A stretch of DNA of 64,000 nt. Source: a virus. The stretch spans positions 1-64,000 of the IMG/VR virus record IMGVR_UViG_3300010396_000006, one strand, 5' to 3'. The position numbers and the translations under genes are program-made. Positions 46,251 through 63,478 of the stretch are shown piece after piece. The number at the start of each line of letters is the position of its first letter. Position 1 is the first letter of the stretch. The notes below the pieces were generated by a model that saw only the letters and a program-made list of their open reading frames with translations, was not told the DNA's origin and did no database searches.

Positions 46251-47073
46251 GGATAAGCTATCGTCTGCGGAGCGAAGGAAGCTCAGAAGGCAGTTAAAGG
46301 AACAAGGCGAATCAATACCCGCTGACCTAACGCCTAAGCCCAATCGTAAAGCCCATCTGGATAAACTCCCCAATACGGAAACAAAGACACCGAAGACGGA
46401 GAGTAAACCAAGGGGCCAAGCGAAGCCAAAGCCCAAAGCGAAAGCCAAGCCCAAGCCAAGAAAGACTGAGACAACACCGGCCGGTAATGAATCAGTCGAT
46501 CAACAGAACGAGACGGAACAACCCAAGCCAGTCACGGTAGAAGCGGTCCCCGCTCCCGAGTCTGAAATCTCACCCGAATCTGTGTCGGGGGGATGGGGGG
46601 ACGGTGGCAAATATGGTCCATCTGGTCTGACGAAAACGCACGAACAGCGGATGGTTGTCAGTTCATTCAATTGGCAAAACCGCAATCGATTCCCGCTGGA
46701 AAAGGCTGTTGACGAAAACCTGAAGATCGTTGATGCGGTTGATGGCAAGTCGGATGTCTATCAGGAAATCCTGACCACGACTGTCGAGATGATGAGATCG
46801 AAGTCGGCGAGGTCAAAGGGCATTGGATTGCGGGCCGGCGTTCAACTCGTGACGGCCGTGCAAAAAGACGACCATGCCAAGTTGAGGGCTGAACTGCGTC
46901 CGATGGTATTCACTCCTCCCTCCCCTGCGCCAGAGATGCCGGCTCCCGCAGTTCCGGCCCATGTCGACCAAAGCATGAACATCGATAACAGCCATCGCGT
47001 CGTGATCTTCAACATTCCGGATAACGGACGAGATCCACAATTGAAGGCGCAATTGACTGGGGCCGCTCAATGA
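46246..47073 (+). CDS. putative terminase small subunit
   Basis: Overlaps terL start; Lys/Pro-rich N-terminus; C-terminal VVIFNIPDNGRD as in many TerS proteins. Confidence 0.6.
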   Translation: MEDKLSSAERRKLRRQLKEQGESIPADLTPKPNRKAHLDKLPNTETKTPKTESKPRGQAKPKPKAKAKPKPRKTETTPAGNESVDQQNETEQPKPVTVEAVPAPESEISPESVSGGWGDGGKYGPSGLTKTHEQRMVVSSFNWQNRNRFPLEKAVDENLKIVDAVDGKSDVYQEILTTTVEMMRSKSARSKGIGLRAGVQLVTAVQKDDHAKLRAELRPMVFTPPSPAPEMPAPAVPAHVDQSMNIDNSHRVVIFNIPDNGRDPQLKAQLTGAAQ

Positions 47074-48797
47074 GTTCCGTTCTCGAACAGTACGGACCAA
47101 ATGCGACGATCGTAGGACCGCAACCGGGTCCCCAGACTCAGGCCATGCAGAGCGCTGCCGATATCGTGATCATGGGTGGGGCGAACGGAGGGGGCAAATC
47201 GCATTGGATTCTGCTCGAAGCAGCGCGTCATGCCCGAGTGCCAGGATATCGAGCTGTCGTGTTCCGGCGTGAATCGACTGATATCACTGACCCCGGCGGA
47301 CTCCAAGATACGTCGATGACGATCTATCCCCAGCTTGATGGATGGTTCCGATCCAACAAACTGGATTGGATATTCGATCCGGATGCTCGCATTTCATTCC
47401 GAGGACTGCCGCACGCCAAGGATGCTATCTCGTGGGATGGAAAAGAACTGGCGTTCATCGGCTTTGATGAATTGCAATTGTTCACCGAATTTCAATTCTG
47501 GTATCTGTTCAGCCGCATGAGGTCCAGTTGCGGCGTCAACCCCGTTATTCGAGCGACATGCAATCCCGTTCATGAGGAAGATCCGACCGGCGGATGGTTG
47601 AAGATCCTGATTGGCTGGTGGCTCAACTGGGAAACCGGGTTTCCAATTCCAGAGCGATCCGGGAAAGTGCGATGGTTCGTGCGGTTGAACAATGAACTTC
47701 ACTGGGGCGATTCCCGCGAAGAACTGATTGAGCGATTCACCGATCCGGACAGTAAAGAGGAAGGCCCAACCGTCTTTCCGATGTCGATCACGTTCATCCC
47801 GTCGAAGTTACGGGACAACCCGATACTGATGAACTCGTCGCCCCAGTATCGAGCCAGCTTGATGGCGTTGCCGGACTATCTGAAGAAACAGAAATACGAA
47901 GGCAACTGGAACGCGAAACTTCAGGCCGGAACATTCTTCAAGATTGGTGTGATGGGCCGCAAAGGTCAGATCATTCCGATAGAGGAACTGCCGGCGATCG
48001 GCCTACGTTATTGCCGTGCCTGGGATCTGGCATACACGGAAGGGGCTGGAGACTGGACCGTTGGTGACTTATTGGCGACTGATGGGAAAGGAACATTTTA
48101 TCTCATTGATCAAGTTCGTGGACAATGGGAATCAAGCAATCGCAATGATCGAATGTTGGCAGTCGCCGCTGACGATGAAGAGAAATACGGTCGAGTCAAG
48201 ATCTGCGTTCCACAAGATCCATCGGCCGGAACTGAAATTTGTGAGCGACTGCTGAAAATGTTTGCCGGTTATTGGGTTGTCGGTCGAAGGCCAATCAAGA
48301 ACAAGGCAGAGCGAGCGTCGGCTTATTCGTCGTCATTCAATGGCGGAAATGTGAAGTTCGTCAAAGCGCCATGGAATTCCGGATTGCTTCAACGAATGGA
48401 TTCATTCCCGACGAAAGATATCCCAGATGATGAGATTGACGCATCTGCGGACGCCTATGAAGAACTCAGAGGCCCATCGCCTGGGGGAGCAATGGCTGAT
48501 CAAAGTGCCGTTGCCAACCCGACAGAGAAGGAAAACGTCAATCCGTTCCGCGGGTTGCTGGAAAGCTATGTTCGCGAATTCTGGTCGACCATGTCGAAGA
48601 ATGAACCAACCTGTCCCGAGTGGAAGGGATCGTTGGCAAGATTCGTTGATGATGTCGGTGAGCGCCCAAGCGACGATCACAAACTCGCAAGACGCGATCG
48701 CAACGAACTATGGGGTCCAGCAAACTTCTACTGGCAACTGGGCGATGAACCGCCTCCACCGATCAAAAGAGGCTGGGGCAAGGCAATGGCGGATTGA
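47070..48797 (+). CDS. terL: terminase large subunit with C-terminal extension
   Basis: PQPGPQ, GGANGGGKS (Walker A), FIGFDEL (Walker B), RATCNP, AWDLA and DDEIDA nuclease acids. Confidence 0.95.
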   Translation: MSSVLEQYGPNATIVGPQPGPQTQAMQSAADIVIMGGANGGGKSHWILLEAARHARVPGYRAVVFRRESTDITDPGGLQDTSMTIYPQLDGWFRSNKLDWIFDPDARISFRGLPHAKDAISWDGKELAFIGFDELQLFTEFQFWYLFSRMRSSCGVNPVIRATCNPVHEEDPTGGWLKILIGWWLNWETGFPIPERSGKVRWFVRLNNELHWGDSREELIERFTDPDSKEEGPTVFPMSITFIPSKLRDNPILMNSSPQYRASLMALPDYLKKQKYEGNWNAKLQAGTFFKIGVMGRKGQIIPIEELPAIGLRYCRAWDLAYTEGAGDWTVGDLLATDGKGTFYLIDQVRGQWESSNRNDRMLAVAADDEEKYGRVKICVPQDPSAGTEICERLLKMFAGYWVVGRRPIKNKAERASAYSSSFNGGNVKFVKAPWNSGLLQRMDSFPTKDIPDDEIDASADAYEELRGPSPGGAMADQSAVANPTEKENVNPFRGLLESYVREFWSTMSKNEPTCPEWKGSLARFVDDVGERPSDDHKLARRDRNELWGPANFYWQLGDEPPPPIKRGWGKAMAD

Positions 48798-53839: not shown

Positions 53840-53854
53840 ATGAGGAGTGAATTA

Positions 53855-54574
53855 ATGGGAACGCAAGTTTGGAATGTGGCATCGCTGCTCGTCATGACGT
53901 CTATGTTCATTGGCTTGGCGACAATGCTCTATCGAGCATTCCGTCATCAACCGGACGTGAAGACTCCAGAAGATCCATACGGATTCGGTTGCAAGCCAAC
54001 GCCGATTCAATTGAGAGTCCTGAAATCAACGGCTGACATCGTGATCTATTGCGGGCCTGCTGGATCTGGAAAGAGCATGCTGATGCGAATGGCCGCAATG
54101 ATGCGAGCCAGGTTGTATCCGTCACAGCCTATCCTCACGTTCTGGTTTCAGCAGCGAGAAACGTGGGAAATGTTGGACAAGCACATTCCGTCAATTCGCG
54201 TGATCGGCCTCAAAGGCATCAATGAGGCTTGTGATCAATTTGCGGGAGTTGCGGCCCACACGATTTGCATCGACGGGATTGACTGGATCAGGGAAGAGTC
54301 GTTCTGGTTTCTGCTGTCGCGGTTGCGATCGAACGATTCGAACGTCAATCCGCAAATGTTCTGCTCAATGGATCGTCTTACAGATCCAAAGCCGCTATGG
54401 CTCGCAAAGCTGGTGAAGCATTGGGAGGAACCAGCAGACGGAATCGGCATTCGTGGAAAGCGGAATGGAATCCGTCACTTCCAAAGGATTGACGGCAATT
54501 TGCATCTTGTGGATATCACAAAGCATGATGCGTTGCTCAGCAAGCCGATCTCGATCGAATACATCCAAGGATGA
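53855..54574 (+). CDS. membrane-anchored degenerate paralogue of the terminase ATPase domain
   Basis: GAGGAG RBS; N-terminal TM; STADIVIYCGPAGSGKS and FWFLLSRLRS align with TerL SAADIVIMGGANGGGKS and FWYLFSRMRS; no nuclease domain. Confidence 0.8.
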   Translation: MGTQVWNVASLLVMTSMFIGLATMLYRAFRHQPDVKTPEDPYGFGCKPTPIQLRVLKSTADIVIYCGPAGSGKSMLMRMAAMMRARLYPSQPILTFWFQQRETWEMLDKHIPSIRVIGLKGINEACDQFAGVAAHTICIDGIDWIREESFWFLLSRLRSNDSNVNPQMFCSMDRLTDPKPLWLAKLVKHWEEPADGIGIRGKRNGIRHFQRIDGNLHLVDITKHDALLSKPISIEYIQG

Positions 54575-55594: not shown

Positions 55595-55888
55595 GTGAAT
55601 TCAAGACCATTGGCCGATCAGGTGATCATCAAGCGAGATGACGCCGAAAAAGTGACTCAGGGAGGAATCCACCTGCCGGATCGAGCGCAGAACGTCCCGC
55701 GAAAAGGAACTGTCCTCGCCGCAGGACCTGGGCGACTTCTGGACAACGGAACCCGCGGAGAAATGGAACTGAAAGCCGGGGATCGAGTCTATTTCTCAGC
55801 TTACGGCGTTCAGGAAGTGGAGATTGACGACGAAAAAGTCATCATCTGCCGGGAGGCGGATGTGTTAGCGGTGATCGAATCTGAGTGA
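55595..55888 (+). CDS. groES: co-chaperonin GroES
   Basis: PLADQVII...TQGGIHLP...GTVLAAGPG...KAGDRV...EADVLAVI. Confidence 0.95.
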   Translation: MNSRPLADQVIIKRDDAEKVTQGGIHLPDRAQNVPRKGTVLAAGPGRLLDNGTRGEMELKAGDRVYFSAYGVQEVEIDDEKVIICREADVLAVIESE

Positions 55889-55976: not shown

Positions 55977-58900
55977 ATGTCACAAATCATGAGCCGACGC
56001 CGCAACCGCAACCGTCGCGTTGAGAACTATCGCAAGAATTCGGATCGGGTTGTTGAGCATCCAAATGTTCCGGCCCCCGAACTGAACGACTCCCAAATCA
56101 AGTCGATGGCGTCTCAGATGCGGGCGGCTCTGGCCGGAAGCTTCGGCGGCGCTCAAGTCACGAATCACCGCGAAGAAGCTCTCCACTATGAGGGCAATAG
56201 CTACGTCAATATCGCGGCCATCTGCGCCCAAATGATGATGGTGACGATAACAGCCTATGTCGACGGATCGAACCAGCTTCGACAGCAGTCGGTCCGGAAG
56301 TCGCTGCGAGGTCTCGTCGGAAGCCGATGGAAGTCTCAATATGGGGTTGATGAGGCATCGTCGAAGCAACTCGAATCAGACCATTACCTGATGCGATTGC
56401 TGTCGAAGCCAAATCCGCACGAACCGGGCAGCATGTTCCGGTATCGGCAAACTCTTCAACTCAGGCTCACTGGAGGTGCGTTCCTGTGGAACGTCCCAAA
56501 TATCAACGGCCGGACGTGCGAACGGTACGTCATCCCCACCACATGCCTGACGCCGGTCTATCCAGACAACACGTTGCCGTACGGTGGTTATCGCGTTCAA
56601 CCAAACTGTATGCGATGGATTCCACTGGTTGACGATGGATTCGTGATCGGGACCCCGGCCCTGATGCGAGTGTTGGGCATGATCATTGATGCCCGAGAAA
56701 TCCAAAAGGTTGGCTATCCACATCCGATCTGGCTGGATGACTTCCAAAGCCCGATGTCTGCTGGCGCTCAGTGGGTCGATGCCGAACGATCGATCAACAT
56801 CGCACGGGCAATGGGCATCAGCCGCGGCATGAATCCGAGCGGTTTCCTTGAACTATCCAAAGAATACATGGGCATCGAACAAGATGCGCTGAACATCACT
56901 CAGCGGAAACTCGATCGACAATATGGCGGCGTCAACAACACGGGCAAGGTCATTGCCGTGGCTCCCGATACCAAGTTCACCGGATACGATCGAAGCCCGA
57001 AAGACATGGAATACCATGAAGGGTACTTGGATCACCGGGAAGCGAATCAGTCTCTACACGGCGTTCATCCGATCATCACTGGCGGACAGCCCCCCGGCGC
57101 ATACGCGGCCTACTACGCCGCCATGCGAGCATTCGACAACAACACGTTGACTCCCATTTGTGACATGCTGGCGGAATCAGACACGTTCCACATTGCACCG
57201 CAATTCGGCGAAGGGATCACGATCGAGATCGAGCCAAAGCCGATCAACGATGAGGACGAACTGAATTCACGTCTCCAGGTCGATGGTCAATTGGGGATCA
57301 TCAAGGTCAATGAAGCGCGAGCATTGCGAGGAATGCCGCCATTGGACGGAGCGCAAGGAGAAAAGCTGTGCGGACCGACTTCAAAGGATAAGGTTGGTCA
57401 GGATCAAGACAGCGACAATCCATCCAAGCCGAAGAAACCAAAGCAGTCTGGCGATGCGCCGTCAACTCCCGAGGTCCAAGAAGCCGAACAAGCGGACGTC
57501 CCCAAGGCTCCCGAAAATCCCATCGTCGGCAAGAGTGAATCAAAATCACTTCAAGCCGCAATGGAAGGGATGAAGGAGGCGGACGAAGACTACATTCAAG
57601 AAATAGTTGCCAAGGCGTTGGATTCGCGACTGAAGGCGATGCAACCTGCCGAGAAGCCAAAGCGGAAGTATTCCTCGACGCAGTTTGATCTGCCTGCCGG
57701 TCTCGCCGAAAAAGTGCAGGAGATGGCAGCCCTGATCAATCCGGCCGATCTCGCATCGGATGGAATCGAAGAAAATCCGCACGTGACTTGCTTGTACGGG
57801 CTGACCGAAGAATCACCCAATGATGTCAAGAAAGCCGTCAAGGGAATCTCGGCCGGTCCGATCGTTCTTGAATCGCTGTCGTTGTTCCCGGCTGGTGACA
57901 AGCTTGCTCAGCATGGCGGCGAACAGTTCGACGTTTTGAAGATCAGCATCGGCGGAAAGTTCATTCACGAGATTCACAATGCGATCGCAGAATCGTGCGA
58001 GTATGAAACCGATTATGCCGACTATTCTCCTCACTGTACGATCGCCTACTTGAAGCCGGGAAAAGGCCGCAAGTATGTGACGATGAACAATCCAGTGGAT
58101 GGGATGACGTTCATTCCTGACAAGCTGATCTTCAGTAGCAAAAACCGAACGGTCTCGGCAATTCGATTGAGCGTTCTGAAATCAGTCGAAGAACAACCAT
58201 CAGAAGCTCAGATTACTGCCGGCAATTACAAAAAAGATCACATCACAATTCAGGGGCTAAGGATCTCAATCGAAAATCCGAAAGGATCTGTTCGAAGTGG
58301 TCGTGACGATGATGGCAATGAGTGGTCAACGAAAATGCGGAATGATTACGGCTACATCAAAGGAACGAAATCAGATTCCGATGGTGATCACATTGATGTC
58401 TTCGTTGGGCCAAATCCAAGTTCAGAATTGGTGTTCGTAATTGATCAGGTCAATCCGCAAAGCGGGCAACATGACGAACACAAATGCATGTTGGGATTCG
58501 ATTCGAAAGATCAAGCGAAGTCTGCCTATCTCGAAAACTATTCCAAGGGTTGGAAAGGCTTCGGCGGCATTACTCCAATGCACATGGATCAATTCAAGGA
58601 ATGGCTAGACAGCGGAGATTCATCAAAAGGAATCGCGAGAAAATCTCTCACGGCAGCATTCTCCGAATCAGAAATGAAGGGCCACAATCCAATCAGCGAC
58701 ATCCAAGCCATTGGAAAGAGACTCGCTGAATCCGATTGTGGAATGCCCGGATACGGTCAGATCTTTATCAAGGAAAACGGATCTGGCCAAGCATGGTATG
58801 TCGGTGGCGACGGAGATGAACGAGGATTCGATAAGACTGTCATTCAAGAACTGAAGAAAGTCACGGGGATTGACGAAGTTCGTTATGAGTCTGAATCGTT

Positions 58901-61900
58901 CCCGCCCGATGGGGAAGGATGGATTCAGGTCTATCCGAAAGTGTCGAAGCGTAAATCTCTCGGCATGTCCGAAGGGATCGGGTCAGATGGAGGATTCGCC
59001 GTCGCTTCCGAAGACGAACGATGCCCAAAATGTCCCAAATGCGGATCACGGGAAACGCATCATGCTAGAACTGATGGCACAGGGAACGCGATCTGTAGCA
59101 ATTGCAAATCAATTTTCACTGATCCTGATTATGGAAAACAGAAATCAGTTTCGTTTCCATCGTCAGAAGTCGTACCGGGCAACAACGGCCATCAATTCCC
59201 CAAGAACACATTGATTCTTGGTGGGGATCAAGTTCTGATGCCACCAGAGTCAGAACTCAAATCCAAATGGATCACGATTCATCCTGGGGGAGACAAAGAC
59301 GCAACTGGCATTCACATCCTGATTGACGAAGACGGCGAAATCAAAGGCGGTCCGGCCGAACTGCGAGACAAAGGCATCCGCAAGATGTCTGACTTCGGGA
59401 AAGAAGACCTGAAGCCAGTCAAACCAAAAGACAATCACGAGAAGGCCGCATTCAACGCCAGCAAGCGAGCCGATCAAGCATCCGCCGATGCTAAAGAGTC
59501 GGGCGACCTGTTCGACCATATTGCGGCTAAAGAAGCCCACATGCACGCCGCAGCCCATCACAGCAAAGGCGGCAATGAAGATCAGGCGTCATATCACAGA
59601 AAGGCGGCTCAACAGCACGGTTCAGCCGCGACACCAACGGCTCCAGCGTCAAACGGACAACTGAGCGACGAAAAGATCATCCAGGCAATGAAGCCATCCG
59701 TTGATCGCAGCGGCATGGTTGAGGCCGAAGAACTGCGATCGATGCCAGAATTCGCTGGGATGTCGAAAGAGAAATTCGACCAACGAATGATGGACATGGC
59801 CAAAGTTGATCAGCCGGGCGGACCGAAGGTCTCGTTGCACCGATACGACCGAGCCGAATCGCTGTCAGCGGACGATAAAAAAAAGATGATCTTCGATCCG
59901 GATGCGCCGGCACGATTCGAAGATGGACAAAAGGGAGCGTATTACAATGCGGTCTCCATCCGCAAATCGTTGTCAGAAATGAAATCGCATTGGATTACGA
60001 TCCATCCTCATGGCGATGAGCATGATGGAACGCACGTTTTGATCGATGGAGAAGGGAATATCGAAGGCGGTCCCGAAGGACTGGCGAAACGTGGGATTCA
60101 CAAGCTGTCCGACTTTGGGAAAGGCGGCGAATCAGCAGACAAACCACACGAAACCCGTGAAGAGTGGGCGAAGAGACATTCCGATGCCGCCGATCATTGG
60201 TTACATGGAGTGAACAATGATCTGGCAGCCGTGCATCAAGAACACGGCGACTTGATCACAAAAAAGCACATGACGGACAGCTTTCGAAATCACGTCAATA
60301 CCGGAAGAATGACCCCAGATCAATATGAGGATCATGTTTCTAAGGGAACCATTCTCGGTGGACACGATTACGAACGCGCTCAGCATGTCGAGCAGAAAAT
60401 CCATGAGATCAAAAATCGTCCGCTAACTGTCCCGGAGCCAGATGGAAAGCATCCATACGTTGAACCGCCCGCCAAGCCGCCGGAAGAAAAGCCAGAAATC
60501 CGACCAGACATCGACGCTCCGATCAGCAAGAAAGACACGCCTCGCGAAACGGCGGCAAAGCAAAAGAAGATTGACGATGATTATGCGTTTGCTCGCAATT
60601 CATCCATCCCGAATGTCGGCGAAGATGTTGCCGATTCGGCTCGTCACAAGCGAAATGCTTGGCGTGGATTGGAAGATGCGGAATCCAATGGAACCGCCGA
60701 ATCAATGGTGACTCGTGATAATCTGCTCAAGGCCGAACCGCACAACTTGATGTCTCATGCCGGAAAACATCCACTGACATCACTGGCCATGCATTACGCG
60801 ATGAGATCGTTCCCAGCGAAACCATCCAGCAATCGCGAAGTGGCCAATGCCAGCGATCGGAAGGACTATCACGAAGCGTATCAGAGCATCAAAGCAAAAG
60901 CCGAGCATCTGGCGGAAACAGAATCCGATCCACGGGCAGCCGCAGAGAAGCTACGAGAACACGTCGGCAATCATCTGAAGGGATTGAGGGAGCGGAAGAT
61001 TCCCGGACCCACAATTCCCGTGGCCGATCGATACAACAAGACCGCGAACAATTTGGTTGGAATGCACAAGGCGTTACGATTCGCCAGCTACGGCCGACCA
61101 TCGGCAAATAGCGTTCATGGCAAGATGGAAGAGTTCTCAAAGGCGATGGCCGGGAAATATGGACTTCCAGAAAAGTATGAACCTGAAGCGGCCAAGCAAT
61201 TCGCCTCCCATATTGAGACTCACGCCAAGGACATTATTGACGGGAAATCGCTTCCACAGTCATTTGGCATTAAGGGAGAAAAGAAAAACGAATTTAATCC
61301 TGCCGATCGATACGTCAAGCATGCTGAACGAGCCGGGGGCAAGGATGTCAGTCACCAAACCGCAACGGGAGTCTCGGCGGCAAACTCCGTCGTAAACGAC
61401 TTCGGGATGCGTGGCGTCCAATGGGGTAACAGCGTCACTGACGACGAACGCCATCATCACGCTGCCAAGGTTGTCGAAGCGTTGACCGATCTGGCCGATA
61501 CTCTCGGCATCAAGCCGGCTGATCTCAGTCTCGGCGGAAAGCTGGCCTTGGCCATTGGCGCTCGCGGTAAGGGAACTGCCTCGGCTCATTACGAACCGCA
61601 TACCCAGGCCATCAACCTGACGCGGGCCAGCGGAGTCGGTACTCTCGCCCATGAGTGGGGACACGCCTTTGATCATTCACTGGAGAATTTCGCGAATCGT
61701 GCGACGAGTGCGGTCTATCACAGCGAAAACTATCGATCCAGTCCGGCAATGCAAAAGCTGACATCCGATTTCCGATCATCGGGATTCACGAATCGAATTC
61801 ATAGTGAGGTTCGTGATATGGTGCGTCAGGGCCTGATGTCGAAAAAGAAAGCGGAATACTGGCTATCAACCAGAGAACAATTCGCCCGTTGCTTCGAGAG

Positions 61901-62684
61901 TTATGTTCAACACAAGCTGGCTGACACGAATCAGAAGAATACGTATCTTGCTGGTCTGATTTCGGACGGCGGCTTGTGGCCGACCAAGGAAGAAACGGCC
62001 AAGATGGCCCCCGCTTTTGACAGTCTGTTCGCTGAATTCCGCAAACAAAAGTATGGAAGCGAAAATCGGATTGATCAGTCTCGATCGGAAATCAAATCGG
62101 CAGTCTTGGATTTGGTTGGTCAATCCGTCTTTAAATCGTCGCGATGGATCACAATCCATCCGCACGGTGAAGACGCGAAAGGCGTCCATATCCAGATCAA
62201 TGACGACGGCGAGATCCTGTCAGGTCCCGCACATCTTCGCGACAAGGGAATTACCCACATGGGGGATTTCGCGAAGCGGGGAAGCAATCAAGCGGCCGTG
62301 GACGAACTGAAGCCTCACGCTCTCGAATTCCTGACCGAGCAACACAAGCTGAGAGAACATCACAAAGCCGAAGCTCGCAAACTGACTGGCAAGAATGCCG
62401 GCAATCTGGCGATGTCGGAAAACAGCTATCACGATCATTCGGATGCTCATCGATTCGAGACCGCCGCTCGCACATTCGCCCGAGAGAATCCCGATGCTGG
62501 ATTGAATCCAGATGCTCACGACACGCCGGCCAAAGTCTGGGAGCTAATCCGGGAGGGCAAGAAGAAAGCCCCGCTGATCAATTCGAAGGAAGTCCACGAG
62601 ACAGCCAGAGCCTGGGTGAAGAATCACCGAACGAAGCGTGCGCCGGTAGGCACATACGAACACGATTCCGATTGGAACTTCTGA
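55977..62684 (+). CDS. portal-fused polyvalent protein (HK97-like portal + 2H phosphoesterase + PPase-like + Zn ribbon + LPD/zincin)
   Basis: Portal: LLSKPNP, LRLTGGAF, SPKDMEY, VNEARALRGMPPL; 2H: PHVT/PHCT; PPase-like: PSEAQITAGNYKK, IENPKGSVRSG, YGYIKGT, DGDHIDVF, DEHKCMLGF; zincin: RGVQWGN, LAHEWGHAFD, EQFARCFESYV. Confidence 0.88.
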   Translation: MSQIMSRRRNRNRRVENYRKNSDRVVEHPNVPAPELNDSQIKSMASQMRAALAGSFGGAQVTNHREEALHYEGNSYVNIAAICAQMMMVTITAYVDGSNQLRQQSVRKSLRGLVGSRWKSQYGVDEASSKQLESDHYLMRLLSKPNPHEPGSMFRYRQTLQLRLTGGAFLWNVPNINGRTCERYVIPTTCLTPVYPDNTLPYGGYRVQPNCMRWIPLVDDGFVIGTPALMRVLGMIIDAREIQKVGYPHPIWLDDFQSPMSAGAQWVDAERSINIARAMGISRGMNPSGFLELSKEYMGIEQDALNITQRKLDRQYGGVNNTGKVIAVAPDTKFTGYDRSPKDMEYHEGYLDHREANQSLHGVHPIITGGQPPGAYAAYYAAMRAFDNNTLTPICDMLAESDTFHIAPQFGEGITIEIEPKPINDEDELNSRLQVDGQLGIIKVNEARALRGMPPLDGAQGEKLCGPTSKDKVGQDQDSDNPSKPKKPKQSGDAPSTPEVQEAEQADVPKAPENPIVGKSESKSLQAAMEGMKEADEDYIQEIVAKALDSRLKAMQPAEKPKRKYSSTQFDLPAGLAEKVQEMAALINPADLASDGIEENPHVTCLYGLTEESPNDVKKAVKGISAGPIVLESLSLFPAGDKLAQHGGEQFDVLKISIGGKFIHEIHNAIAESCEYETDYADYSPHCTIAYLKPGKGRKYVTMNNPVDGMTFIPDKLIFSSKNRTVSAIRLSVLKSVEEQPSEAQITAGNYKKDHITIQGLRISIENPKGSVRSGRDDDGNEWSTKMRNDYGYIKGTKSDSDGDHIDVFVGPNPSSELVFVIDQVNPQSGQHDEHKCMLGFDSKDQAKSAYLENYSKGWKGFGGITPMHMDQFKEWLDSGDSSKGIARKSLTAAFSESEMKGHNPISDIQAIGKRLAESDCGMPGYGQIFIKENGSGQAWYVGGDGDERGFDKTVIQELKKVTGIDEVRYESESFPPDGEGWIQVYPKVSKRKSLGMSEGIGSDGGFAVASEDERCPKCPKCGSRETHHARTDGTGNAICSNCKSIFTDPDYGKQKSVSFPSSEVVPGNNGHQFPKNTLILGGDQVLMPPESELKSKWITIHPGGDKDATGIHILIDEDGEIKGGPAELRDKGIRKMSDFGKEDLKPVKPKDNHEKAAFNASKRADQASADAKESGDLFDHIAAKEAHMHAAAHHSKGGNEDQASYHRKAAQQHGSAATPTAPASNGQLSDEKIIQAMKPSVDRSGMVEAEELRSMPEFAGMSKEKFDQRMMDMAKVDQPGGPKVSLHRYDRAESLSADDKKKMIFDPDAPARFEDGQKGAYYNAVSIRKSLSEMKSHWITIHPHGDEHDGTHVLIDGEGNIEGGPEGLAKRGIHKLSDFGKGGESADKPHETREEWAKRHSDAADHWLHGVNNDLAAVHQEHGDLITKKHMTDSFRNHVNTGRMTPDQYEDHVSKGTILGGHDYERAQHVEQKIHEIKNRPLTVPEPDGKHPYVEPPAKPPEEKPEIRPDIDAPISKKDTPRETAAKQKKIDDDYAFARNSSIPNVGEDVADSARHKRNAWRGLEDAESNGTAESMVTRDNLLKAEPHNLMSHAGKHPLTSLAMHYAMRSFPAKPSSNREVANASDRKDYHEAYQSIKAKAEHLAETESDPRAAAEKLREHVGNHLKGLRERKIPGPTIPVADRYNKTANNLVGMHKALRFASYGRPSANSVHGKMEEFSKAMAGKYGLPEKYEPEAAKQFASHIETHAKDIIDGKSLPQSFGIKGEKKNEFNPADRYVKHAERAGGKDVSHQTATGVSAANSVVNDFGMRGVQWGNSVTDDERHHHAAKVVEALTDLADTLGIKPADLSLGGKLALAIGARGKGTASAHYEPHTQAINLTRASGVGTLAHEWGHAFDHSLENFANRATSAVYHSENYRSSPAMQKLTSDFRSSGFTNRIHSEVRDMVRQGLMSKKKAEYWLSTREQFARCFESYVQHKLADTNQKNTYLAGLISDGGLWPTKEETAKMAPAFDSLFAEFRKQKYGSENRIDQSRSEIKSAVLDLVGQSVFKSSRWITIHPHGEDAKGVHIQINDDGEILSGPAHLRDKGITHMGDFAKRGSNQAAVDELKPHALEFLTEQHKLREHHKAEARKLTGKNAGNLAMSENSYHDHSDAHRFETAARTFARENPDAGLNPDAHDTPAKVWELIREGKKKAPLINSKEVHETARAWVKNHRTKRAPVGTYEHDSDWNF

Positions 62685-62723: not shown

Positions 62724-62791
62724 CTGCGATTGATCTGGTCCCGTTGATGGAGCATGAAGATGATTCAACGCATGCAAGAAAGGTTTTCAAA

Positions 62792-63478
62792 ATGGAGATG
62801 AATCGACGCTCACTACTCGGAATGATCCTTGGTTCGGCTTGCTCGTTATTATTGCCAACTAAGTCGATATCCGCTGGTTTGAAGTCACTGGAAATTCCGG
62901 TCGATGCGAACGGCATCCCAATTCACTGTTATGTCTGGAACGTGCCAAACATCAACGGCCGGACGTGCCAGAGACATATTATTCCTGTCGACGATCTTGC
63001 ATTGATTAAAGCGAATACGGAGTTGCCTTATAGTGGGTATCGTATCAGCCAATCCCCCAATCGATGGGCATCCATGCCGCTTTATGGGGAAAGCCCGGTT
63101 GAAAATCCATCATTGCGAGTCGCTGGATATATCATTGATGACAGGCAAGTAGAACGAATCTCTCCATCGAATCCATTTCGGCTGAAGTTGCTTTACCATC
63201 ATGACGTCGAGGTATGCTTTATTGACGGGTCTGCCGATGACTCGATCGCCTTCTATCTCGCATGGCAAAGATGCCGCCAAACTCCATCGCAAGAATCGGA
63301 GTTGCGAAAACATTTAGCGAATGGCGACGGCATTGCGATTGGCTTTCGCAAATCAAATTTGATGTCTTTTGTGGCAATCAACCAAGCGGTTATGGACTGC
63401 GGTGTCCCATGCTTTGAGACAGACAAAATGACAGAAAGCGAAAATCGATGCACGCGGACGTATGCTCACGTCAGCTAG
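62792..63478 (+). CDS. Tat-like signal peptide fused to a duplicated portal segment
   Basis: MNRRSLLGMILGSACSLLLP; WNVPNINGRTC...LPY.GYR...RV.G.IID.R matches the portal. Confidence 0.8.
   Translation: MEMNRRSLLGMILGSACSLLLPTKSISAGLKSLEIPVDANGIPIHCYVWNVPNINGRTCQRHIIPVDDLALIKANTELPYSGYRISQSPNRWASMPLYGESPVENPSLRVAGYIIDDRQVERISPSNPFRLKLLYHHDVEVCFIDGSADDSIAFYLAWQRCRQTPSQESELRKHLANGDGIAIGFRKSNLMSFVAINQAVMDCGVPCFETDKMTESENRCTRTYAHVS

Follow-up and report, generated by a model that had tools for sequence, protein, structure and literature searches.

Lys-Ser and related sites in a portal-fused phage polyprotein suggest possible release of cargo by the capsid maturation protease

How could an effector domain that is covalently tied to the portal of a phage head reach the host? 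Portal-fused and other polyvalent effectors are common in metagenomic phages, and the route by which a portal-tied domain gets to the host has so far gone unexplained. Fusions of polyvalent proteins to a portal or to MuF have been described, and packaging of their effector domains has been proposed (Iyer, Burroughs, Anand, de Souza, Aravind 2017, PMC5512222; 2022, PMC9503650). Effector packaging via portal fusion is thus already on record, and what is new here is the release mechanism only: release by the prohead protease would be a plausible new variant. The question is posed by P0001, encoded by an uncultured 106-kb phage (complete virus record of 105,647 bp with terminal repeats), of which we analyzed a window of 64,000 nucleotides; in P0001, a portal is followed by a chain of effector modules of ~1,700 residues. 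An earlier note on this DNA had proposed that the maturation protease frees the portal-fused cargo at Lys-Ser (KS) dipeptides. Restated as cleavage at K-S/A/T sites, this idea is, taken as a whole, the explanation that best fits the sequence features, and a slight balance of probability lies on its side.

The module order first read from the letters alone (portal, then 2H, PPase-like, Zn-ribbon, repeat, and LPD/zincin modules) was confirmed within one ORF by Pfam matches and an HExxH motif (Table 1). The portal match spans positions 28-321 of the 321 in the PF04860 profile, and PHROG portal families 2662 and 12 also match. The 2H domain exceeded the Pfam cut-off when its sub-range was scanned alone (27.7 vs 27 bits), while LPD1 (aa 1955-2024) reached 52.3 bits against a cut-off of 27. 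In the zincin, the HExxH at aa 1892-1896 (nt 61650-61664) is intact and falls inside a weak Pfam match at aa 1865-1921, and a short repeat opening W-I-T-I (WITI) is present in three copies. Homologues of P0001 are mostly giants bearing LPD and InPase, and the effector modules seen among relatives comprise 2H, InPase, topoisomerase IB, GNAT, a kinase-like domain, and zincins. With TerL at 47070-48797, P0001 sits in the virion/packaging module of a portal-terminase phage.

Table 1. Features of the polyprotein and of the protease gene (nucleotide positions in the window unless marked as genome positions)
Feature	Position	Strand	Details
Polyprotein P0001, single ORF	55977-62684	+	2235 aa, intact ~245 kDa; portal-fused polyvalent (cargo) polyprotein
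N-terminal extension	55977-56300	+	aa 1-108; ends at candidate cut site R-K108-S109
Portal domain PF04860	56361-57332	+	aa 129-452; Pfam 80.2 bits vs cut-off 39.1
Post-portal disordered linker, Pro/Lys/Asp-rich	57372-57542	+	aa 466-522; pLDDT<50
Portal C-terminal helix	57543-57638	+	aa 524-553; candidate sites K523-S524 and K553-A554 on either side
2H phosphoesterase module	57663-58175	+	aa 563-733; pLDDT 84-92; K735-S736 directly after
InPase module	58203-58607	+	aa 743-877; Pfam 193.7 bits; internal KS at 798, 848
K889-S890 site and unknown module of ~100 aa	58641-58952	+	aa 890-992
Copy of capsid maturation site and N-arm start	58953-59015	+	aa 993-1013; 15/21 identical to MCP aa 143-163
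Zn-ribbon	59028-59123	+	aa 1018-1049; weak Pfam match (E 0.002), CxxC pairs; K1056-S1057 after
K1095-S1096 site and WITI repeat 1 (small beta module)	59259-59402	+	helical region after, to ~aa 1220
K1330-S and K1336-S sites and WITI repeat 2	59964-60122	+	
Large helical zincin/LPD1 module	60594-62090	+	aa 1540-2038
K2040-S and K2053-S sites, WITI repeat 3, and C-terminal helical module	62094-62681	+	ends D-W-N-F
Putative HK97-like (S78) protease with scaffold-like tail	genome 79602-81026		474 aa; directly upstream of the MCP gene

We then considered how KS is distributed along P0001. The coordinates given in the earlier note, which had placed KS at or near domain boundaries, were all correct and cover 11 of the 18 KS; the seven not listed there are K42, K108, and K119 in the portal N-terminal region and the four that lie within folded domains, namely K798 and K848 (InPase), K1044 (Zn ribbon), and K1757 (zincin module). 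The InPase pair is not kept in relatives, and K1757-S is also conserved among unrelated polyvalent proteins. Enrichment of KS as a raw dipeptide did not hold up, since 18 were seen vs 13.2 expected (shuffle p = 0.11) and SK, its reverse, is present 20 times. Ser follows Lys, however, at 11 of 51 linker Lys vs 4 of 109 domain Lys (Fisher p = 7e-4), and after correction for linker composition the 11 linker KS compare with 5.1 expected (Poisson p = 0.016), the linkers being defined by AlphaFold pLDDT<50 and Pfam envelopes over aa 440-2235 in a map partly drawn post hoc, with the sites already known. The first AlphaFold model was poor (mean pLDDT 49), with aa 440-1400 poorly predicted and InPase itself not modelled. 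A cruder, family-wide test placed 38% of KS vs 35% of SK no more than 10 residues from a homology break point and thus gave no KS-specific signal. Overall, the first observation was borne out in part. Among 26 further portal relatives, KS totaled 143 vs ~76 expected (row sum), with 24 of the 26 above expectation.

A prohead protease and a capsid KS site had been expected outside the window, and this was borne out in part: a putative HK97-like protease gene and an MCP with a KS-rich N-terminus were found, but the MCP site is not K-S and the protease did not reach the S78 threshold. Nearest neighbors of the protease/scaffold protein in ESM-Atlas are Peptidase_S78 (feature score 0.95, structure TM 0.59), and NCBIfam gives a weak match (E 0.013) to a model of protease/MCP fusions. 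When a profile of the protein and two relatives was compared with HK97 gp4 by hhalign, the E value was 0.004 but the probability 8%; this weak alignment pairs H90 with gp4 H65 and S148 with gp4 S114, both invariant in three relatives. A Pfam search gave no match at E<=0.05 (S78 being PF04586), and neither a PDB sequence match nor a tblastn match among cultured phages was obtained. The MCP is of HK97 type by profile match (PF05065, 131 bits over aa 196-440; TIGR01554, 175.5 bits) and has a delta-like, putatively removable N-terminal extension of 143 aa, homology to other MCPs beginning at aa 141-142.

It is in these parts that KS is abundant. The protease/scaffold protein has 15 KS vs 3.8 expected (shuffle p = 5e-5 and 2e-4 in two runs) and its two relatives 7 vs 3.0 and 9 vs 3.4, while the MCP N-terminal regions of three related genomes have 4, 5, and 6 KS vs ~1.2-1.5 expected and the mature MCP parts have zero in all three. 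The HK97 proteins follow a similar pattern: all four KS of gp5 are in the 103-residue scaffolding domain, the last being K103-S104, and all four KS of gp4 are located after the catalytic domain. Direct alignment of the MCP N-terminal region to gp5 was unsuccessful. The MCP maturation site itself reads K-A or K-T, and at aligned scaffold sites in relatives KS changes to KA or KC with the Lys retained; the motif is better written as K-S/A/T than as KS. The presumed specificity of this protease family for cutting between K and S rests on one experimental HK97 site and sequence bias.

Several candidate sites in the polyprotein are conserved. R-K108-S109, before the portal core, is invariant in seven close relatives and reads R-K-S/A/T in ~23 of 25 further portal relatives. 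Across ~30 relatives (identity 35-53%), both this site and the K523 column are kept, the latter as K-S/T/A; the K553-A554 column at the portal/cargo junction also stays K-S/T/A in relatives. The K523 motif and its helix are also present in apparently unfused portals of 550-580 aa, so the role of this motif may be structural, with Ser/Thr capping the helix, and not that of a junction with cargo. Further along, K-S lies ahead of 10 of 11 matched WITI modules at a spacing of 0-11 residues, and P0001 ends at the point where P0007, P0008, and P0009 continue through K-S into their next module. At the hinge after InPase, P0001 has K-S vs Y-E in P0034, an unrelated polyvalent protein with 48% identity elsewhere.

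The polyprotein also contains a copy of the capsid maturation site. All 13 portal fusions having the region carry K-S/T and then this ~17-residue copy, L-G-M-S...G-x-D-G-G-F, and in each fusion it matches that phage's MCP where homology to other capsid proteins starts. In P0001, 15 of 21 residues but just 43 of 63 nucleotides are identical to the MCP, and 9 of those 15 residues are encoded by different codons, which argues for selection on the peptide and against a recent DNA copy.

Together, these features suggest a mechanism in which we infer four elements: that the chain is cut, which protease cuts it, that the fragments stay in the head, and that they are ejected. The portal C-terminus, facing the capsid interior, bears the string of effector and accessory modules, making P0001 a portal-anchored polyvalent protein, and twelve copies would enter each prohead within the portal ring. 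The putative HK97-like serine protease, made as a protease-scaffold fusion, would cut behind a Lys whose next residue is small (Ser, Ala, or Thr). It would do so in the MCP N-terminal scaffolding region, in its own tail, and in the polyprotein, where the predicted cuts are at K108 (ahead of the portal core), K523 and/or K553 (portal/cargo junction), and K735, K889, K993, K1056, K1095, K1330/1336, and K2040/2053 (from one cargo module to the next). Cutting would clear the portal channel for DNA packaging and yield ~12 copies each of the 2H phosphoesterase, InPase, a Zn-ribbon piece, and three WITI-led fragments, one with zincin/LPD1, and the freed fragments would be ejected with the DNA. The idea as first put forward is supported in part: the KS-rich protease and MCP regions, the HK97 pattern, and the capsid-site copy raise its plausibility considerably, whereas its raw KS premise failed, K553-A554 had been missed, and the motif had to be widened to K-S/A/T. 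To the broader view that some phages use a true polyprotein strategy, with the portal as a 12-copy loader of interchangeable anti-defence effectors that the maturation protease separates into WITI-led fragments at junction motifs evolved to match, and once to copy, the capsid site, the WITI module at the start of each fragment perhaps being a tag for ejection or retention, we give slightly less than even weight.

The same sites could also be read as signs of a more limited processing, in which the portal is trimmed (at the N-terminal R-K-S and/or by one portal/cargo cut) and a cut is made at the capsid-site copy, the remaining cargo staying as one or two large polyvalent proteins and most other KS being incidental to Lys/Ser-rich linkers. 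We regard this as rather unlikely. Only K108, K523, and K993 keep their position across the whole family, overall KS enrichment is lacking, SK is equally frequent in linkers, and large polyvalent proteins such as phi24B gp47 (2811 aa) have been found in virions, the accessible part of the source mentioning no processing. However, K-S precedes nearly every WITI module although the spacing varies, the module end D-W-x-F that precedes K-S in relatives is the natural C-terminus of P0001, and the Y-E vs K-S change at the InPase hinge and the Lys-to-Ser bias in P0001 linkers also speak against this reading.

Self-processing by the embedded zincin, with the prohead protease uninvolved, appears improbable. 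This is the model of Iyer et al. 2017, who had a precedent in P1 DdrB (PMC5512222), and in P0001 the HExxH is intact and the helical module is confidently modelled, with a weak fold resemblance, to zincin peptidases only (best Foldseek E 0.035). Yet fusions without HExxH (P0007, P0008, and G001) retain the K-S/T sites along with the capsid-site copy, and these sites resemble those in capsid and scaffold proteins, the proposed substrates of the serine protease. That the extension is not cleaved at all, staying on the portal as an internal core or barrel or acting in the producing cell while the KS pattern and N-arm-like peptide bind the capsid interior or scaffold, is also very doubtful: the phage N4 virion RNA polymerase is packaged without processing (PMC5512222), and in HK97 the scaffolding-domain end and the N-arm bind to the inside of the capsomer, so that a peptide resembling the N-arm could serve for docking, but a portal crown with twelve extensions of 190 kDa would probably obstruct DNA entry, portal-tethered effectors would be unable to reach the host, and the Lys-small motif is concentrated in exactly those parts that HK97-type proteases remove.

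Release by the maturation protease has partial counterparts in known systems. Like the polyvalent proteins of Iyer et al., P0001 combines many effector-type domains, LPD1, InPase, a portal-fused 2H, and a zincin in a virion-module context, with packaging and injection predicted for both; those papers invoke metallopeptidase autoproteolysis or none, whereas the P0001 junctions carry a capsid-protease motif and a capsid-site copy that are kept without a zincin. With HK97 gp4/gp5, this phage shares the gene order (protease, then capsid protein), a weakly aligning His/Ser pair, KS clustered in the N-terminal scaffolding region, and a final Lys-small site followed by L-G, but HK97 has K-S at the maturation site instead of K-A or K-T, and the protease of this phage has in addition a scaffold-like tail of ~270 aa. 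No cargo and no cleavage are known for the HK97 portal (424 aa).

T4 internal proteins and Alt have a capsid-targeting sequence that is removed by gp21, and the ejection proteins of phiKZ and SPN3US are cut by the prohead protease. Such cargo, as in the proposed mechanism, shares the cleavage motif of the head protease and is ejected with the DNA, but it consists of separate gene products with an N-terminal tag or scaffold-core targeting and a motif after Glu, whereas for P0001 covalent portal fusion would provide targeting and many cargos would come from one polyprotein. In lambda (gpB to B*) and P2 (gpQ), the head protease trims a short portal piece of ~20-26 residues and no functional cargo is freed, which offers a precedent for the proposed K108 cut. 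In retroviral Gag-Pol and in picornaviruses, one translation product fixes stoichiometry and location, and a virion-associated protease separates the parts at short junction motifs; these share no homology with P0001, and the likeness is one of analogy only.

If the maturation protease does read a code at the junctions, this would amount to a simple, sequence-checkable rule predicting which head proteins are cargo and what their mature fragments are; new effectors would be swapped in as modules between two Lys-Ser sites, and the code could guide the design of phage heads that deliver proteins of choice. The capsid-site copy makes the idea concrete, as it predicts that one short peptide suffices for protease recognition. 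As for attachment to the head, a Pfam scan of P0001 for the MuF/SPP1 gp7 domain (PF04233) gave no match, the head anchor being the portal itself. P0014, a homologue of the zincin module, does carry PF04233.

The virus record whose first 64 kb form the window is complete (105,647 bp, with direct terminal repeats), and its polyprotein is encoded by a single plus-strand ORF of 2235 aa at 55977-62684. The domain architecture that the earlier note had read from this ORF was borne out by Pfam matches, an intact HExxH motif, the repeats, and a separate scan of aa 523-735, which brought the 2H phosphoesterase above the Pfam cut-off and showed a faint likeness to Acb1. Two AlphaFold models were analyzed, of which the one covering aa 1300-2235 was usable (mean pLDDT 72), while the one covering aa 440-1400 was poor (mean pLDDT 49), with only the 2H domain and repeat 1 well modelled; the InPase and Zn-ribbon borders were therefore taken from Pfam. 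When the aa 1300-2235 model was searched against the PDB with Foldseek, nothing was found at E≤0.001 and generic zincin peptidases appeared at E 0.03-0.3; we read the predicted fold no further than "zincin-like". A tblastn search of a phage collection with the portal gave no cultured relative, the best match being 26% identical.

Domains of the polyprotein (aa) and genes of the phage (window or whole-genome positions)
Feature	Position	Evidence or remark
Phage_portal	aa 129-452	Pfam, 80 bits
InPase	aa 743-877	Pfam, 194 bits
Zn ribbon	aa 1018-1049	Pfam, weak
Zincin	aa 1892	intact HExxH; Pfam signal weak
LPD1	aa 1955-2024	Pfam, 52 bits
WITI module, ~45 residues, 3 copies	start aa 1098, 1339, 2057; window 59262-59402, 59985-60122, 62136-62276	
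TerL, full	window 47070-48797	
TerL-like protein, 244 aa	window 53840-54574 (+)	P-loop and TerL-ATPase-like PHROG matches
Cpn10/GroES	window 55595-55888 (+)	97 bits; directly upstream of portal gene
Portal-like ORF, 244 aa	window 62744-63478 (+)	directly downstream of polyprotein
Double Clp_N domain protein	genome 65316-66125	2.6 kb downstream of portal gene
Portal-family match, 497 aa	genome 73249-74742 (outside window)	residues 119-242 match PHROG portal family positions 583-708 of 717
Protease/scaffold protein, 474 aa	genome 79602-81026	directly upstream of capsid gene
HK97-type major capsid protein	genome 81109-82482	PF05065 131 bits, TIGR01554 175 bits

The earlier note had suggested looking outside the window for the prohead protease and for a KS site in the capsid protein; the capsid gene and a candidate HK97-like protease gene both lie there (genome 79602-82482). 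The protease/scaffold protein matched nothing in Pfam, falling below the profile threshold for S78, nor did phmmer against the PDB or tblastn against cultured phages return a match. Its nearest ESM-Atlas clusters are nonetheless Peptidase_S78 (features 0.95; structure TM 0.59), and a profile built from three protease sequences placed His90 on His65 and Ser148 on Ser114 of HK97 gp4. We read it as a putative HK97-like protease with an acidic, scaffold-like tail of ~270 residues. This protein contains 15 Lys-Ser (KS) dipeptides against 3.8 expected (p 5e-5 and 2e-4 in two runs), and the capsid protein contains four, all within residues 1-107 and none in the mature part. In two related genomes, the protease/scaffold proteins hold 7 KS versus 3.0 expected and 9 versus 3.4, and the capsid N-terminal regions 5 versus 1.2 and 6 versus 1.15, again with none in the mature part. 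The pattern is strong and repeated in all three genomes (G000, G001, and G002), the only ones from which matched portal, protease, and capsid sets were drawn. HK97 is alike: 4/4 KS of gp5, of which K103-S104 is the last, lie inside its 103-residue scaffolding domain, and 4/4 of gp4 lie past the catalytic domain (boundary taken from PMC10275583). At aligned scaffold positions in the relatives, KS gives way to KA or KC with the Lys retained. From the bias in the protease, the capsid N-terminal regions, and HK97, we may reasonably infer that this protease prefers Lys followed by a small residue.

We consider the strongest single argument for the polyprotein as a likely substrate of the capsid-maturing enzyme to be a copy of the capsid site within it. 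From aa 141-142 onward the capsid protein is homologous to those of other phages, and its site there reads K143-A-L-G-M-S-E-G-I-A-S-D-G-G-F-G-V, while the polyprotein carries K993-S-L-G-M-S-E-G-I-G-S-D-G-G-F-A-V. Of 21 aligned residues, 15 are identical, 9 of these being encoded by different codons, and 43/63 nucleotides agree. The match is maintained at the peptide level, and on account of the codon differences we rejected a recent DNA duplication as its source. The element, always after K-S or K-T, was found in 7/7 close portal fusions, in the fusion of G002, and in five further relatives, and the capsid proteins of related phages bear a matching site (K-T-I-Q-G-M-S or K-A-V-Q-G-M-S). Co-variation between capsid site and copy was not shown with the three available pairs, which are too few and too alike. 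Because neither BLASTP nor hhalign aligned the N-terminal regions of the capsid protein and HK97 gp5, we regard K143-A144 as the probable equivalent of HK97 K103-S104 from motif similarity and the start of homology.

Within the polyprotein, the KS coordinates listed in the earlier note were all correct and comprise 11 of 18. The dipeptide as such is not enriched (18 versus 13.2 expected, shuffle p 0.11; SK occurs 20 times); over 26 further portal relatives, the tabulated counts sum to 143 versus about 76 expected. The proposal that KS falls at domain boundaries stood up in part. In the aa 1300-2235 model, K1330, K2040, and K2053 lie in low-confidence linkers and K1336 is one residue ahead of the first strand of repeat 2; in the aa 440-1400 model, a disordered linker of 57 residues precedes K523, K735 immediately follows the 2H domain (aa 563-733), and the first strand of repeat 1 begins directly past K1095. 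Ser follows 11/51 linker Lys compared to 4/109 domain Lys (Fisher p 7e-4), and after correction for composition the 11 linker KS compare with 5.1 expected (p 0.016). The linker map combined AlphaFold models with Pfam envelopes, and since part of it was drawn once the sites were known, this bias lends moderate support to the junction reading. Conversely, at the homology break points of ~30 relatives, a test independent of the linker map but noisy, KS was not separated from SK (38% versus 35% within 10 residues), and unlisted KS fall within domains, at K798 and K848 (InPase), K1044 (Zn ribbon), and K1757 (zincin module). The two in the InPase are not conserved even inside the family, and the one at K1757 is kept in the consensus even of unrelated polyvalent proteins.

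Individual candidate sites are conserved. R-K108-S, at the start of the canonical portal profile, is invariant in the close set and recurs as R-K-S/A/T in about 23/25 further portal relatives; cuts at K108 and K523 would leave a core of 415 residues, close to the 424 of the HK97 portal. K523-S/T/A-L is conserved among portal relatives, but it may be structural, since the motif and the next helix are also present in apparently unfused portals of 550-580 aa. A better candidate for the portal/cargo junction is K553-A554, conserved at the end of that helix and L-K-S-L or L-K-S-M in relatives, which the earlier note had missed because it is K-A rather than K-S. Where A-R-K-S-L forms the hinge after the InPase here, an unrelated polyvalent protein that is otherwise 48% identical has A-R-Y-E-L. 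Of the 11 WITI modules matched in the retrieved proteins, 10 have K-S 0-11 residues ahead of them, and where the polyprotein ends in D-W-N-F, three relatives (P0007, P0008, and P0009) go on with K-S and another module. The WITI module itself follows the pattern W-I-T-I/L, then G-x-H-I/V-x-I-D-x-D-G-x-I, then G-P; it has no Pfam family and only a weak match to a PHROG family of unknown function. Portal fusions and other polyvalent proteins contain further copies, almost all of them directly behind K-S, and the module may indicate where each released piece of cargo begins.

For polyvalent proteins, autoproteolysis by the zincin was proposed by Iyer et al. (PMC5512222). However, in P0007, P0008, and the G001 fusion, HExxH is absent while the K-S/T sites and the capsid-site copy are retained, which argues for a cutting enzyme acting in trans; the zincin of the polyprotein may be an effector instead. 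The pathway we infer, from sequence features alone, is that the portal-fused polyprotein would become part of the prohead as its portal dodecamer, the cargo lying inside, and that the protease, carried in by its scaffold-like tail, would cut after Lys at exposed junctions. The portal crown would thereby be cleared, about 12 copies per module would stay in the head, and the modules would exit alongside the DNA for an early action, such as that of the 2H enzyme on defence signals made of nucleotides. Processing of ejection proteins by a protease is known from T4 and phiKZ-like phages. The action on nucleotide signals assigned here to the 2H enzyme was suggested by Iyer et al. (PMC5512222, PMC9503650), who also described, by computation, polyvalent proteins and effectors fused to a portal or MuF domain. 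What is new is the combination of many cargos in one portal-anchored polyprotein, an HK97-type-protease motif at the junctions, and an embedded capsid site; a literature search of incomplete coverage found no description of portal polyprotein, junction motif, and capsid-site copy together.

Other members of the same portal lineage (P0128, P0133, P0127, and L009:734-5098) carry a topoisomerase IB, a GNAT acetyltransferase, an ATLF-like zincin, and a kinase-like C-terminal domain, and such different fused cargo points to fast module exchange behind a constant portal. A 7.2-Mb Schlesneria sp. (Planctomycetota) genome includes an annotated portal-InPase protein of 976 aa (P0139; 41% identical), and this hints at the lineage's host range.

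In the ORF downstream of the polyprotein, an 88-residue stretch preceded by an N-terminal hydrophobic segment is 42% identical to portal aa 168-253 (BLASTP E 8e-19), and a 33-nt DNA stretch is near-identical at 56487-56519 and 62936-62968. This ORF is evidently a partial portal paralogue, conceivably a decoy or an assembly factor. Along with the TerL-like protein, encoded apart from the full TerL, it is one of two partial packaging-protein copies close to the portal gene. With the Cpn10/GroES and double Clp_N genes, the phage encodes chaperone or unfoldase parts beside its head genes. The 497-aa protein matches the C-terminal part of the portal family, a piece that appears to be fused to the portal in other phages.
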